From NCBI RefSeq assembly GCF_024502345.1, contig NZ_JALDNN010000001.1: a stretch of 64,000 bases of DNA; one strand, 5' to 3'. Of the stretch, positions 17,944 through 63,135 are shown one piece after another (position 1 is the stretch's first letter; each line of letters opens with the position of its first letter). Below the pieces are notes generated by a model. It had not been told where the DNA came from and made no database searches. It saw only the letters and a list, made by a program, of their open reading frames with translations. Origin of the DNA: Escherichia coli. GTDB taxonomy: Bacteria > Pseudomonadota > Gammaproteobacteria > Enterobacterales > Enterobacteriaceae. The translations under genes and the position numbers were made by a program.

Positions 17944-18806
17944 ATCTACCCCATCTGGCCCAGCGATTATTTAACACCCCGCTGGCGCTGCACCCGAGTA
18001 AAGCCGAAGTCATCATGGCATCCGTAATGGACCGATTTGGTATCAGTAAAATCGAATCTTCTCTTGCCATGGAGGATGACTGGTACGGATATGACGATAA
18101 CCGGGGACGTGAATCCCGTAGTGATCCGGGTTATGACAATGTGCTGGGTGTCGCCGTCATCCCGATATGCGGAACGCTGGTGCAAAAACTGGGCAGTCTG
18201 CGTCCGTACAGTGGAATGACAGGGTATGACGGCATTCGTCAGGCGTTTCTTACTGCGATGGAAGATCCCGACATTTCGGGCATTTGCCTGGATATCGACT
18301 CACCCGGCGGCGAGGTCGCTGGATGCTTCGATCTGGTTGATGTCATTTACGGCTCCCGGGGGAAAAAGCCTATCCATGCCATTCTGACGGAAAGCGCTTA
18401 TTCCGCTGCGTATGCCATTGCCAGTGCAGCGGACCGGATTTCTGTTCCGCGCACCGGCGGAGTGGGTTCTGTGGGTGTGATCACCATGCACCTTGACTGG
18501 ACGCAGCGGATTAAAGATGACGGTCTTAAAGTTACGATCATCACCTATGGATCCCGCAAGGCTGAAGGTTCGCCGCTGAGAGAGTTGTCAGATGAAGCTC
18601 TGGCCGCCATCCAGCAGGACATTAACACCATGGGCGAATTGTTTGTGAACACTGTTGCCAGAAACCGGGGGATTAGCGCAAAGGTTATAAAAAGTACCCA
18701 GGCCGCCTGTTTTATGGCTGCTGATGGCGTTGAAATTGGACTGGCTGATGAGGTGTGTCCTCCTGACGCTGCGTTCAAAAACTTACTTGAAAAAACAGGA
18801 GCCTGA
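17940..18806 (+). CDS. head maturation protease (S49/ClpP-like)
   Basis: 288 aa, gene order after portal. Confidence 0.7.
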   Translation: MNLPHLAQRLFNTPLALHPSKAEVIMASVMDRFGISKIESSLAMEDDWYGYDDNRGRESRSDPGYDNVLGVAVIPICGTLVQKLGSLRPYSGMTGYDGIRQAFLTAMEDPDISGICLDIDSPGGEVAGCFDLVDVIYGSRGKKPIHAILTESAYSAAYAIASAADRISVPRTGGVGSVGVITMHLDWTQRIKDDGLKVTIITYGSRKAEGSPLRELSDEALAAIQQDINTMGELFVNTVARNRGISAKVIKSTQAACFMAADGVEIGLADEVCPPDAAFKNLLEKTGA

Positions 18807-46216: not shown

Positions 46217-47310
46217 TAACGTCCCTCAAAATCTATACGCGGATCGACCAGCGTATAGCTGATATCACTGACAATATTCAGCAGCAGGCCAATCAGGGTG
46301 AAAATATACAAGGTACCAAACATTACAGGATAATCGCGCGAGACGGTCGCTTCGTAGCCCAGTAAGCCAAGACCATTGAGTGAAAACATCACCTCAATCA
46401 GCAGCGAGCCGGTAAAAAACATGCTGATAAACGTCGCCGGAAAACCGGCAATCACCAGCAGCATGGCGTTGCGGAACACATGTTTCCAGAGAATATTTTT
46501 TTCACTTACCCCTTTCGCACGCGCGGTCACCACGTATTGCTTGCGTACTTCATCAAGGAATGAGTTTTTTGTCAGCATAGTCAGCGCCGCAAAGCCACCA
46601 ATCACCGTCGCCAGCACCGGCAGCGTGATATGCCACAGATAATCGGTGATTTTCTGATACCACGGCAGCGAATCAAAGTTAGCGGAAACCAGGCCGCGTA
46701 GAGGGAACAGGTCGAAATAGCTGCCGCCTGCGAAGAAGACAATCAGCAGGATGGCAAACAAAAAGGCCGGAATGGCGTAGCCGATGATGATAAATGCGCT
46801 ACTCCAGACGTCAAAGCGGCTCCCATTATAAACAGCTTTGCGAATGCCTAACGGAATCGACACCAGATAGATAATCAGCGTGCTCCATAATCCGAGGGTG
46901 ATGGAAACCGGCAGACTGTCTTTAATCAGCGTCAGCACCGAGGCGCTGCGAAACAGGCTATCGCCAAAATCAAAGCGGATGTAGTCCCAGAGCATTTTGA
47001 AGTAACGTTCGTGGATCGGCTTATCGAAACCGTAGCGATGAGTGATCTCGGCGATCACTTCTGGATCTAATCCGCGTCCGCCACGGTAATTACTGTCGCT
47101 GATATTGCCGACACCCGTTTGCGCATGGCTGGCACGAACACCTTCACCGCCTGCGCCGGGTAATACTCCGGCATTACCAAACTCAATGGCGGCGATGGCC
47201 TGGTCGATCGGACCGCCAGGCGCAATTTGCACGATGAAAAAGTTGATAGTGATAATCGCCCATAACGTTGGGATCACCAGCAACAGACGGCGAATCAGAT
47301 AAGCGCCCAT
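46216..47310 (-). CDS. yejB: peptide ABC transporter permease
   Basis: 364 aa, TM permease. Confidence 0.95.
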
Positions 47311-60078: not shown

Positions 60079-61770
60079 ATGAAAACGCTGCTGATTATTG
60101 ACGCTAATCTCGGTCAGGCACGCGCCTATATGGCGAAGACCCTGCTGGGCGCGGCGGCGCGAAAAGCAAAACTGGAAATCATCGACAATCCGAACGACGC
60201 AGAAATGGCGATTGTTCTCGGTGATTCCATCCCGAACGACAGCGCGCTGAACGGTAAAAATATCTGGCTGGGCGATATTTCCCGGGCAGTTGCGCACCCT
60301 GAGCTGTTCCTGAGTGAAGCCAAAGGCCATGCGAAACCTTACACTGCGCCGGTCGCTGCGACAGCACCGGTTGCCGCCAGCGGTCCGAAACGCGTAGTTG
60401 CGGTGACTGCTTGCCCGACTGGCGTAGCACACACCTTTATGGCGGCTGAAGCCATTGAAACCGAAGCGAAAAAACGTGGCTGGTGGGTGAAAGTTGAAAC
60501 CCGTGGTTCTGTTGGTGCGGGTAATGCAATCACTCCCGAAGAAGTAGCCGCAGCGGATCTGGTGATTGTGGCGGCAGATATCGAAGTGGATCTGGCGAAA
60601 TTTGCTGGTAAACCGATGTATCGTACCTCTACCGGTCTGGCGCTGAAGAAAACCGCGCAGGAACTGGATAAAGCGGTTGCTGAAGCAACGCCGTATGAAC
60701 CGGCGGGCAAAGCTCAAACGGCGACCTCTGAAGGTAAGAAAGAGAGTGCAGGCGCATACCGTCACTTGCTGACGGGCGTCTCTTACATGCTGCCGATGGT
60801 CGTTGCAGGTGGTCTGTGTATCGCGCTTTCTTTTGCTTTTGGTATCGAAGCGTTTAAAGAGCCGGGTACGTTGGCAGCGGCGCTGATGCAGATTGGTGGT
60901 GGTTCAGCCTTTGCGCTGATGGTGCCGGTACTGGCAGGTTACATTGCCTTCTCCATTGCCGATCGTCCGGGCCTCACGCCGGGTCTGATTGGCGGTATGC
61001 TGGCGGTCAGCACCGGTTCTGGCTTTATTGGCGGTATTATTGCGGGCTTCCTGGCTGGTTACATTGCGAAGTTAATTAGTACGCAACTGAAACTGCCACA
61101 GAGTATGGAGGCGCTGAAACCAATCCTGATCATTCCGCTAATTTCCAGTCTGGTGGTCGGTCTGGCGATGATCTACCTGATCGGTAAACCAGTTGCTGGC
61201 ATTCTCGAAGGGTTGACTCACTGGCTGCAGACCATGGGGACTGCGAATGCGGTTCTGCTGGGGGCGATCCTCGGTGGCATGATGTGTACTGACATGGGCG
61301 GTCCGGTAAATAAAGCAGCGTACGCATTCGGTGTGGGTCTGCTGAGTACTCAAACCTATGGCCCGATGGCGGCGATTATGGCGGCAGGTATGGTGCCACC
61401 GCTGGCAATGGGCCTGGCAACAATGGTGGCGCGTCGCAAATTCGACAAAGCGCAGCAGGAAGGTGGCAAAGCCGCTCTGGTACTGGGACTGTGCTTTATT
61501 TCGGAAGGTGCAATTCCGTTTGCTGCTCGTGATCCGATGCGTGTGCTGCCGTGCTGTATCGTGGGTGGGGCGCTGACTGGCGCAATCTCAATGGCGATTG
61601 GTGCGAAACTGATGGCACCGCACGGTGGTCTGTTTGTTCTGCTGATCCCTGGCGCTATTACGCCGGTACTGGGTTACCTGGTAGCAATTATTGCCGGTAC
61701 GCTGGTGGCGGGTTTGGCCTATGCCTTCCTGAAACGTCCGGAAGTGGACGCAGTAGCGAAAGCCGCGTAA
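60079..61770 (+). CDS. fruA: fructose PTS EIIB'BC component
   Basis: 563 aa. Confidence 0.95.
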   Translation: MKTLLIIDANLGQARAYMAKTLLGAAARKAKLEIIDNPNDAEMAIVLGDSIPNDSALNGKNIWLGDISRAVAHPELFLSEAKGHAKPYTAPVAATAPVAASGPKRVVAVTACPTGVAHTFMAAEAIETEAKKRGWWVKVETRGSVGAGNAITPEEVAAADLVIVAADIEVDLAKFAGKPMYRTSTGLALKKTAQELDKAVAEATPYEPAGKAQTATSEGKKESAGAYRHLLTGVSYMLPMVVAGGLCIALSFAFGIEAFKEPGTLAAALMQIGGGSAFALMVPVLAGYIAFSIADRPGLTPGLIGGMLAVSTGSGFIGGIIAGFLAGYIAKLISTQLKLPQSMEALKPILIIPLISSLVVGLAMIYLIGKPVAGILEGLTHWLQTMGTANAVLLGAILGGMMCTDMGGPVNKAAYAFGVGLLSTQTYGPMAAIMAAGMVPPLAMGLATMVARRKFDKAQQEGGKAALVLGLCFISEGAIPFAARDPMRVLPCCIVGGALTGAISMAIGAKLMAPHGGLFVLLIPGAITPVLGYLVAIIAGTLVAGLAYAFLKRPEVDAVAKAA

Positions 61771-61783
61771 TAAAAGGTGTGTT

Positions 61784-61812
61784 ACAGGGCAGAAATTTAC
61801 TGCCCTGTATCA
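61784..61812 (+). terminator. hairpin terminator after fruA
   Basis: acagggca-gaaatttac-tgccctgt. Confidence 0.5.
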
Positions 61813-62092
61813 TTGGATGAGCGCAAAGAGAATGACCGGTTTGTGAATGTAATTTTATGAATTTAAATGGTTTTATCTTTCAGTAGAAACCTGAAACGTT
61901 CATCAAATACTAAGGTTATTTCCTCAAGGGCAGATTCTTTTCTGCCCTTTTTTAGTGTTCATGTTCTGTGCATCCCGTCACAAATTCCTCGCTTTTGTAA
62001 TTCAGGCATTTAATCGCATTTTGTGAGCCTGCTCAAATCTGCCCATTTTGCCTCTCTGGCGGTAATTTACTTTACGTAAAACATGCATACTA

Positions 62093-62126
62093 TGAGCACA
62101 TGTTTAAATATGAACACATGTTTAAA
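62093..62126. repeat. Tandem 16-bp direct repeat upstream of psuK (possible operator)
   Basis: tgagcacatgtttaaa-ta-tgaacacatgtttaaa; each unit has a palindromic ACATGT core. Confidence 0.5.
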
Positions 62127-62193
62127 CCGTCTTTGCAGTATCTATATTCTTGTGGATTGACAGGGTTGGTAATTTTTTACCAGAGGACGTGCT

Positions 62194-63135
62194 ATGCGCG
62201 AAAAGGATTATGTCGTAATTATAGGTTCGGCGAATATTGATGTCGCCGGATATTCACATGAATCATTAAATTATGCGGATTCAAATCCAGGTAAAATAAA
62301 ATTTACGCCTGGTGGGGTAGGGCGAAATATTGCACAAAACCTGGCGTTGCTGGGTAACAAAGCCTGGCTACTGAGCGCAGTAGGCAGTGATTTTTATGGT
62401 CAATCGCTGCTAACGCAAACCAATCAATCTGGCGTTTATGTCGATAAATGCCTGATTGTGCCGGGAGAAAATACGTCGAGCTATTTATCATTACTCAATA
62501 ATACCGGTGAAATGCTGGTTGCTATAAATGACATGAATATTAGCAACGCTATTACAGCTGAATATCTCGCACAGCACCGTGAATTTATTCAGAGGGCAAA
62601 GGTCATTGTCGCGGACTGTAATATCAGTGAAGAGGCACTGGCATGGATTCTGGATAATGCTGCCAACGTACCCGTATTTGTCGATCCGGTTTCAGCGTGG
62701 AAATGTGTCAAAGTGCGCGACCGTCTAAATCAGATCCACACTCTCAAGCCAAACCGCCTTGAAGCGGAAACCCTGAGTGGGATTGCGCTGTCAGGGCGTG
62801 AAGATGTGGCAAAAGTTGCTGCCTGGTTCCATCAACATGGCCTGAACCGACTGGTATTGAGCATGGGCGGCGATGGCGTTTATTACAGTGATATCAGCGG
62901 TGAAAGTGGCTGGTCTGCCCCGATCAAAACCAATGTTATTAATGTTACCGGAGCGGGCGATGCCATGATGGCGGGACTTGCTTCGTGTTGGGTAGACGGA
63001 ATGCCGTTTGCCGAATCTGTTCGTTTCGCACAGGGATGTTCGTCAATGGCGCTCTCCTGTGAATACACCAATAACCCCGATTTATCGATTGCCAACGTTA
63101 TATCGTTAGTGGAGAACGCAGAATGTCTGAATTAA
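62194..63135 (+). CDS. psuK: pseudouridine kinase
   Basis: 313 aa, PfkB-family carbohydrate kinase. Confidence 0.9.
   Translation: MREKDYVVIIGSANIDVAGYSHESLNYADSNPGKIKFTPGGVGRNIAQNLALLGNKAWLLSAVGSDFYGQSLLTQTNQSGVYVDKCLIVPGENTSSYLSLLNNTGEMLVAINDMNISNAITAEYLAQHREFIQRAKVIVADCNISEEALAWILDNAANVPVFVDPVSAWKCVKVRDRLNQIHTLKPNRLEAETLSGIALSGREDVAKVAAWFHQHGLNRLVLSMGGDGVYYSDISGESGWSAPIKTNVINVTGAGDAMMAGLASCWVDGMPFAESVRFAQGCSSMALSCEYTNNPDLSIANVISLVENAECLN

Follow-up and report, generated by a model that had tools for sequence, protein, structure and literature searches.

The ROK repressors NagC and Mlc of Escherichia coli combine an N-terminal winged helix-turn-helix (wHTH) domain with a metabolite sensor that has a sugar-kinase fold. 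In BirA, NadR and the archaeal RbkR, a helix-turn-helix (HTH) domain and an enzyme of the repressed pathway are held in one polypeptide, an arrangement that also appears to exist in the HTH-PsuK proteins described below, those of Yersinia, Serratia and Shewanella among them. Among palindromic DNA sites, the 'Cheo box' of Gram-positive LexA/DinR is CGAAC-N4-GTTCG. No psuK regulator is known to us in RegulonDB or EcoCyc. A literature search for a psuK regulator, a function of YeiI, a YeiL motif, 'PsuR' or an HTH-PfkB regulator returned nothing, in agreement with an earlier note on this DNA, which knew of no assigned regulator for the repeat that is the subject of this report.

The repeat lies upstream of psuK in a 64-kb stretch of E. 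coli DNA, here called the window. The computational investigation presented here points, with a probability of about 0.6, to a pair of operators in the transcription start region of psuK, bound by the protein YeiI, which would repress psuKGT until pseudouridine relieves the repression.

Structure and genomic context of the psuK repeat

The gene order in the window is fruB-fruK-fruA followed by psuK. The features on which the description of the repeat depends are as follows.

62194 to 63135, plus strand: psuK, pseudouridine kinase, first gene of psuK-psuG-psuT (open reading frame list; K-12 RefSeq annotation; NCBIfam NF007355, 713 bits)
62091 to 62108: repeat unit 1, TATGAGCACATGTTTAAA (Tandem Repeats Finder and repeat search)
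62109 to 62126: repeat unit 2, TATGAACACATGTTTAAA (Tandem Repeats Finder and repeat search)
62094 to 62105: putative operator O1, a 12-bp imperfect palindrome, GAGCA-CA-TGTTT, with half-sites kept in 15 lineages
62112 to 62123: putative operator O2, GAACA-CA-TGTTT, its centre 18 bp from that of O1

Two tandem copies of TATGARCACATGTTTAAA make up 62091-62126, 68 bp 5' of the psuK ATG at 62194. They form the sole array reported by Tandem Repeats Finder (period 18, 2.0 copies, 94% matches, score 65), and in the repeat search the two units are identical at 17 of 18 positions. The tandem direct repeat with ACATGT cores (62098-62103 and 62116-62121) that the earlier note placed about 70 bp upstream of psuK is thus recovered by both repeat-finding methods at very nearly that distance; only its dimensions change, and trivially so, since the 16-bp unit with a 2-bp linker becomes a unit of 18 bp that encloses the 16-mers first described (62093-62108 and 62111-62126). 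On sequence grounds the operative element is the 12-bp palindrome RAACA-YR-TGTTY, one per repeat unit, rather than the 16-mer. Four half-sites therefore run across O1 and O2 with spacings of N2, N6 and N2.

The pair score observed upstream of psuK was reached in none of 2000 dinucleotide shuffles of that region, and the degenerate 16-mer has no further exact match in the 64-kb window. When the window was scanned for two RAACAnnTGTTY-like sites 17-20 bp apart, one other comparable pair was found, at 46474; it is weaker than the psuK pair (9+7 versus 8+9) and, since it falls in what appears to be coding sequence, was put down to chance. The match at 46474 and one at position 18247 of locus L001 both fall within coding sequence, and no convincing additional site was found upstream of nfo-yeiI, rihB or nupX or across the window.

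Downstream of psuK the K-12 chromosome continues with psuG, psuT, yeiL (opposite strand), rihB, nupX and then yeiI and nfo (opposite strand). Beyond E. coli and the cryptic clades, a convergent yeiI-nfo directly follows psuT, and yeiL, rihB and nupX are absent. Because NupX is 87-89% identical to PsuT, the yeiL-rihB-nupX block (L001:12705-15824) looks like a local duplication and insertion between psuT and yeiI. In the nfo-yeiI interval gSELEX has placed a constitutive sigma-70 promoter, which fits a regulator that is made constitutively, and a motif scan of the locus found no site upstream of yeiI itself. On the other side of the repeat, two hairpins lie 3' of fruA (61780-61812 and 61926-61949), of which only the second was scored as terminator-like by the scan. 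The stretch of about 110 bp between them is AT-rich, and a small hypothetical protein is annotated there in some RefSeq genomes.

Conservation of the site pair

The repeat stretch is identical in K-12 MG1655, and of 5426 complete E. coli genomes 2752 match the 76-bp segment that holds it at 100%, with one to three differences in another 1460. In the E. coli variants that were inspected the changes fall in the spacer or flanks, and the half-sites are spared. A second allele of the fruA-psuK spacer, E. albertii-like and too diverged for megablast, is carried by approximately 22% of E. coli genomes; it is only about 60% identical to the window, yet it keeps ATTTAC...TATGAACAyrTGTTTAAATATGAACAC. 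The same block is found at 11 orthologous loci in a species-level genome collection (Escherichia spp., E. albertii, Citrobacter, Buttiauxella and a metagenome-assembled genome, or MAG, of Raoultella) and in the psu loci of Pluralibacter and Affinibrenneria. Across the E. coli alleles and the enteric genera, the best-conserved part of the psuK upstream region is the series of four half-sites GAACA-N2-TGTTT-N6-GAACA-N2-TGYTY. The earlier note had named footprinting across Enterobacteriaceae as the check on its proposal of a two-site palindromic operator for a regulator of pseudouridine catabolism, with loss of the motif in orthologous spacers as the result that would speak against it; the sites are conserved, and the half-sites shared across genera support the proposed operator.

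The K-12-type allele of the spacer and the 5' end of psuK (window 61744-62700; L003, L007) is present in approximately 78% of the 5426 genomes. The near identity of the 22% allele to that of E. albertii suggests that the two deeply diverged E. coli spacer alleles reflect an old polymorphism or recombination. In two unrelated E. coli strains psuK is broken by IS1 (L003:10356-11053 and L024:2544-3241), and in L024 both operators and the 5' half of psuK are deleted as well.

The same site pair is found 5' of pseudouridine operons in Yersinia, Serratia, Pasteurella, Shewanella (TTAAACAAAAGTTTGCCTTGCAAACATATGTTTGC), Aliivibrio (CAAACAATAGTTAGTTTAGTGAACATATGTTTGC) and a Burkholderiaceae MAG, and the spacing of the pair is 18-19 bp in every lineage. 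Thirty sites from 15 lineages give the consensus wwY-RAACA-YR-TGTTY-raa, which was refined on the same sequences that were later scored, although the enteric motif had already been settled when the four most distant taxa, Pasteurella, Shewanella, Aliivibrio and the Burkholderiaceae MAG, were looked at, so that these served as an independent test. Position 4 of the palindrome is C in all 30 sites and position 9 is G in 29. In nine regions tested, the pair score was reached by 0-5 of 2000 dinucleotide shuffles each. No second pair of that quality was present in the two loci of about 15 kb that were scanned whole (L025 and L026), and other pairs in the 18-kb K-12 locus and the 64-kb window reach only lower scores.

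This distribution bears on an alternative in which the repeat is a functionless local duplication that arose by replication slippage in an AT-rich spacer. Such an origin is suggested by there being only two, almost identical copies, and by the K-12-type units being more alike than those of any other lineage (11-12 of 18 positions elsewhere), a likeness that indicates some recent homogenisation in the K-12-type allele. However, both sites are older than the divergence of the Enterobacterales families, the pair recurs in Vibrionales, Alteromonadales, Pasteurellales and Burkholderiales, and variation within E. coli avoids the half-sites, so that a functionless duplication is very improbable.

A protein with HTH_24 and PfkB domains is encoded beside or behind the sites in all 22 psu loci examined, either as the first gene of the operon or as the convergent yeiI after psuT, and a recognisable pair is present in 21 of the 22, the exception being Xenorhabdus with its degenerate proximal pair. 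In Yersinia, Serratia, Xenorhabdus, Pasteurella testudinis, Shewanella, Aliivibrio and the Burkholderiaceae MAG the YeiI homologue is the first gene of the operon, and in these distant operons HTH-PfkB is joined by psuG and usually by a nucleoside transporter of the NupC or ABC type.

In Yersinia and Serratia the site pair overlaps the annotated ATG of HTH-PsuK. The called start in these genera is an ATG inside the operator (MFKNKQVSxM...; L015:6001-6030 and L016:6001-6030), whose E. coli counterpart opens a spurious 46-codon open reading frame, MFKYEHMFK... (window 62100-62240). The true start is probably the second Met, which aligns with MxxREKQIL of other homologues. A single distal palindrome, CCAAACAnnTGTTTGG, is also found about 250-285 bp 5' of the HTH-psuK start in Yersinia (L015), Serratia (L016) and Xenorhabdus (L017, at about -284), where it may serve as a third operator for looping.

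The same survey weighs on the identity of the binding protein. Some other factor might bind the repeat, whether YeiL, a CRP/FNR-family protein encoded nearby, at the central TGTTT-N6-GAACA, a nucleoside regulator of global scope such as CytR, or CRP; the arms of the central inverted repeat are N6 apart, as in sites of the CRP/FNR type, and yeiL is 5 kb away in E. coli. Against this, the sites are kept in eight loci and in distant taxa whose psu locus is without yeiL, the outer half-sites are conserved too, and the yeiL-rihB spacer has no similar site. CRP needs the G of TGTGA, and the consensus for a CytR pair is GTTGCATT. TGTTT is without that fourth-position G, and no GTTGCATT pair is present. 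Binding by such a factor is accordingly considered unlikely. E. albertii, Citrobacter, Buttiauxella, Raoultella and Pluralibacter all keep the sites in psu loci that have no gene for YeiL, a protein that would have to recognise a TGTTY half-site and not one of the TGTGA or TTGAT type; since yeiL-rihB-nupX is missing where the sites persist, YeiL is not the conserved partner. When their consensus sequences were compared with the half-sites, none of CRP, CytR, ArcA, NsrR, Fis, Fur and NrdR fitted.

The probable psuK promoter and leader

The following elements surround the site pair.

62022 to 62037: CRP-like site, TGTGAgcctgcTCAAA (TGTGA-N6-TCAAA), centred at about -70.5 from the putative transcription start, a class I position
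62066 to 62071, plus strand: putative -35 hexamer, TTTACT, kept as TTTACW in enterics
62088 to 62093, plus strand: putative -10 hexamer, TACTAT, after a 16-nt spacer and abutting O1; TAYYAT or TAGATT in enterics
62166 to 62183, plus strand: leader hairpin UUGGUAA-UUUU-UUACCAG in the minimum free energy fold, immediately 5' of the Shine-Dalgarno sequence GAGGA (62183-62187)

The first of these resembles the CRP consensus, and TGTGA-N6-TCATA stands at a constant 28 bp before TTTACT in the second E. coli allele, Citrobacter, Buttiauxella and Pluralibacter. The first site also has a -10-like hexamer directly before it in Aliivibrio, Affinibrenneria and the Burkholderiaceae MAG. With 8 of 12 matches, TTTACT-N16-TACTAT falls under the threshold of the promoter scan (9 of 12), which favours TTTAAA-N16-TATATT at 62121-62148 with 9 of 12. 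The latter was rejected as the psuK promoter, as it is unconserved and a natural 11-bp deletion breaks its spacing in one Escherichia genome.

Adaptive mutations provide a further constraint on the promoter. According to four reports (PMC7518454, PMC9509342, PMC6731689, PMC10340439), a psuK/fruA substitution, 2257444 A>C, arises repeatedly across many K-12-colonised mice; in the text consulted it is termed only a promoter-region mutation, and its authors describe changed psuK expression and growth. In a study of long-term stationary phase (PMC7858067), a psuK/fruA A>C substitution, a single allele, appears in three of four populations, at a coordinate that was not matched to 2257444. The offset between the two versions of the K-12 reference was calibrated on four srlR mutations listed in the mouse-gut tables, for which only +1978 yields all four amino-acid changes. 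The mouse-gut mutation is thereby located at position 2259422 of NC_000913.3, which is position 62068 of the window, 126 nt 5' of the psuK ATG. On the psuK strand it is a T to G change that turns the -35 hexamer TTTACT into TTGACT.

Because the adaptive mutation improves the -35 at 62066-62071, and because the promoter elements are conserved, psuK transcription probably starts near 62100, at about position 2259390 on the minus strand of NC_000913.3. With a start there, O1 would cover about -6 to +6 and O2 about +13 to +24, which is the position of a repressor. The recurrent sweeps would also be explained at the level of a base pair, by the creation of a near-consensus -35 just 5' of the operators.

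A different polarity was also considered, in which the operators are real but YeiI or HTH-PsuK activates, or has a dual role, from roughly -35 to -65 relative to a promoter further downstream, for example TTTAAA-N16-TATATT. The preference of the scan for 62121-62148 speaks for this arrangement, as does the fact that loss of yeiI function is never reported in the available text of the evolution experiments, though knock-outs of repressors are common there for other pathways. The downstream promoter, however, has no conserved counterpart in the diverged allele or other genera and has its spacing ruined by the natural 11-bp deletion, whereas the adaptive mutation strengthens the upstream -35 instead; in distant taxa, moreover, the sites are flanked by a -10-like hexamer on one side and by the start codon on the other. 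Activation from these sites is judged to be rather unlikely, and repression from O1 and O2 remains the preferred reading.

If transcription starts near 62100, the repeat is itself transcribed, and it could then act in RNA, by forming a hairpin in the 5' leader that alters how stable the mRNA is or how well it is translated. The K-12-type leader does fold with an 11-bp stem from the repeat (z = -2.85 for the whole leader), and Alifold draws a nine-pair stem between the inner half-sites. Yet the 11-bp stem is limited to the K-12-type allele, and adjacent palindromes inevitably yield inverted repeats of this kind. The sequence of the half-sites is itself conserved, beyond complementarity; the central dinucleotides are always Y-R, so that they pair by chance in three of four combinations, and they are unpaired in this window. 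Finally, no Rfam model matches 62060-62200 at E <= 1. A function of the repeat in RNA is quite improbable.

The separate hairpin before the Shine-Dalgarno sequence may nevertheless influence translation or mRNA stability. In the Alifold alignment its pair 82/92 is CG in seven sequences, UA in two and UG in one, which amounts to one compensatory event; elsewhere the hairpin reads UGGCAA...UUGCCA, and E. albertii has the U-G intermediate. The corresponding DNA, TGGCAA-N5-TTGCC, was considered as a sigma-54 promoter and rejected in favour of an RNA hairpin, because the GG-GC spacing varies between 11 and 12 and because a start at that point would leave no leader.

YeiI and the HTH-PsuK proteins

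YeiI is labelled only 'sugar kinase' by the NCBI annotation model and is described as uncharacterised in papers. A profile search places HTH_24 in residues 1-48 (E = 1.2e-10; 41 bits, the cut-off being 21.9), followed by a PfkB domain that is the closest paralogue of PsuK, YeiI and PsuK being 38-39% identical. In an AlphaFold2 model of YeiI with a mean pLDDT of 90.8, three helices and a wing (the wHTH, at pLDDT 79-93) precede a kinase domain that superposes on the solved structure of E. coli PsuK with a TM score of 0.95. The PDB has no entry for an HTH-PfkB fusion. Among 48 aligned homologues there is little or no variation in the recognition helix (ISRSxVAxHIM) and the wing (KGxIKGKGY), with their residues R31, S30, S32, H37, K44, G45, G49, K50, G51 and Y52, and this near-invariance matches the constancy of the half-site.

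The kinase domains of the distant HTH-PfkB proteins are 53-59% identical to E. coli PsuK in Enterobacterales and Pasteurella and 41-44% in the others, and these proteins are therefore PsuK orthologues with an HTH. E. coli PsuK is without the HTH that its neighbouring paralogue YeiI possesses. The N-terminus of PsuK, MREKDYVVIIG (62194-62226), resembles both ends of the N-terminal region of HTH-PsuK (M..REKQIL ... YVVVIG); it is speculative, resting on three shared residues, that the HTH of PsuK was lost by an in-frame deletion.

The two clades differ in the catalytic anion-hole motif of PfkB kinases. The HTH-PsuK clade has the canonical GAGD in every cluster that bears the motif (42 of 42), whereas GADD or GADE replaces it in all 43 such clusters of the YeiI clade, and YeiI itself carries GADD in place of the intact GAGD expected of an active PfkB pseudouridine kinase. 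Further kinase motifs are also changed in YeiI, and its score against the PsuK equivalog model (256 bits) is below the cut-off of 540 bits. In contrast to the altered motif, S30, N143 and K170 (PsuK numbering), which determine pseudouridine affinity and substrate-induced closure (PMC9061257), are invariant in both clades. From these residues being kept while GAGD has become GADD, we infer that YeiI probably still binds pseudouridine yet is a poor kinase or none. A poor or absent kinase activity fits the finding that a psuK mutant in which yeiI is present cannot use pseudouridine (PMC12506659).

Proposed mechanism

The psuKGT promoter would be ordered as a CRP-like site near -70, the -35 TTTACT, the -10 TACTAT and then O1 and O2, with one YeiI dimer on each palindrome. 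Bound YeiI would block initiation or promoter escape at a promoter that is weak and probably CRP-assisted, and pseudouridine or its 5'-phosphate, on binding to the kinase-like domain, would release it. In most of the gamma- and beta-proteobacteria examined, a single HTH-PsuK fusion encoded behind these sites would act as both the kinase and its own regulator. In the Escherichia/Citrobacter/Enterobacter lineage, these roles would be split between a PsuK without the HTH and a YeiI that has the HTH and the pseudouridine contacts but in which GAGD has become GADD.

A broader proposition, to which we give roughly even odds, is that YeiI and HTH-PsuK form a regulator family that senses through a PfkB domain. 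Its members would be kinase-autorepressors in most proteobacteria and would have been divided by duplication in the E. coli lineage into the enzyme PsuK and the pseudokinase repressor YeiI, with the repeat as operator pair and the weak CRP-dependent promoter as a recurrent target of adaptation.

Several observations count against the model of repression by YeiI, among them the preference of the promoter scan for a promoter downstream of O2, the degenerate proximal pair of Xenorhabdus and the lack of a site upstream of yeiI. With a spacing of 18 bp, the two dimers would sit on different faces of the helix. In addition, other pathways adapt in the same evolution experiments by knock-outs of repressors (frlR, srlR, dgoR, glpR), whereas the accessible portions of those reports record no yeiI or operator mutations at the psu locus and only the -35 mutation recurs. 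Loss of YeiI may thus be insufficient or not beneficial under those conditions, or YeiI may be no simple repressor; it is also possible that the promoter is limiting even when derepressed, or that the operon is already induced there.

The model would give the orphan K-12 gene yeiI a candidate function and psuKGT a candidate regulator, and the motif could serve in annotating the pseudouridine regulons of proteobacteria. If true, it would also provide a clean case of enzyme and regulator functions parting after duplication. On the practical side, strains that produce pseudouridine for mRNA therapeutics are manipulated in psuK and psuG, and knowledge of the native control would be useful for them.

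Comparison with known systems

The palindrome invites comparison with several described sites. The core of the Cheo box, GAACA-NN-TGTTC, is the same palindrome as that of the psuK sites; E. coli LexA, however, recognises CTGT-N8-ACAG, and the context of psuK is catabolic and without a link to the SOS response, so that the likeness is a coincidence of sequence and not a sign of membership. With regard to the sites of CRP, FNR and YeiL, the inner TGTTT-N6-GAACA has the spacing of a CRP site, and a separate and better CRP-like site, TGTGA-N6-TCAAA, lies 70 bp upstream. The psuK half-site also differs from the TGTGA and TTGAT of CRP and FNR, and conservation extends to the outer half-sites.

NagC and Mlc resemble the YeiI model in having palindromic operators, often two per promoter and placed over the core promoter, and in coexisting with active kinase paralogues. 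They differ in that their sensor has the ASKHA (actin-like) kinase fold, as opposed to the PfkB/ribokinase fold of YeiI, and in that their operators are unrelated in sequence to O1 and O2. ROK repressors often loop between sites about 90 bp apart, whereas the psuK sites are 18 bp apart, and a possible distal third site comparable to the ROK looping sites is seen only in Yersinia, Serratia and Xenorhabdus.

The enzymes joined to the HTH in BirA, NadR and RbkR are a ligase, an adenylyltransferase and a riboflavin kinase, respectively, and not PfkB kinases. Unlike these proteins, moreover, the enzyme and HTH functions are apparently separated in E. coli, between PsuK and YeiI. The proposed system is of a familiar kind, in which a local repressor binds palindromic operators in pairs and answers to a metabolite through a sensor derived from an enzyme, as in NagC/Mlc, BirA and NadR; the use of a PfkB kinase as the sensor, together with the split into an enzyme and a pseudokinase regulator, would, if true, be new.
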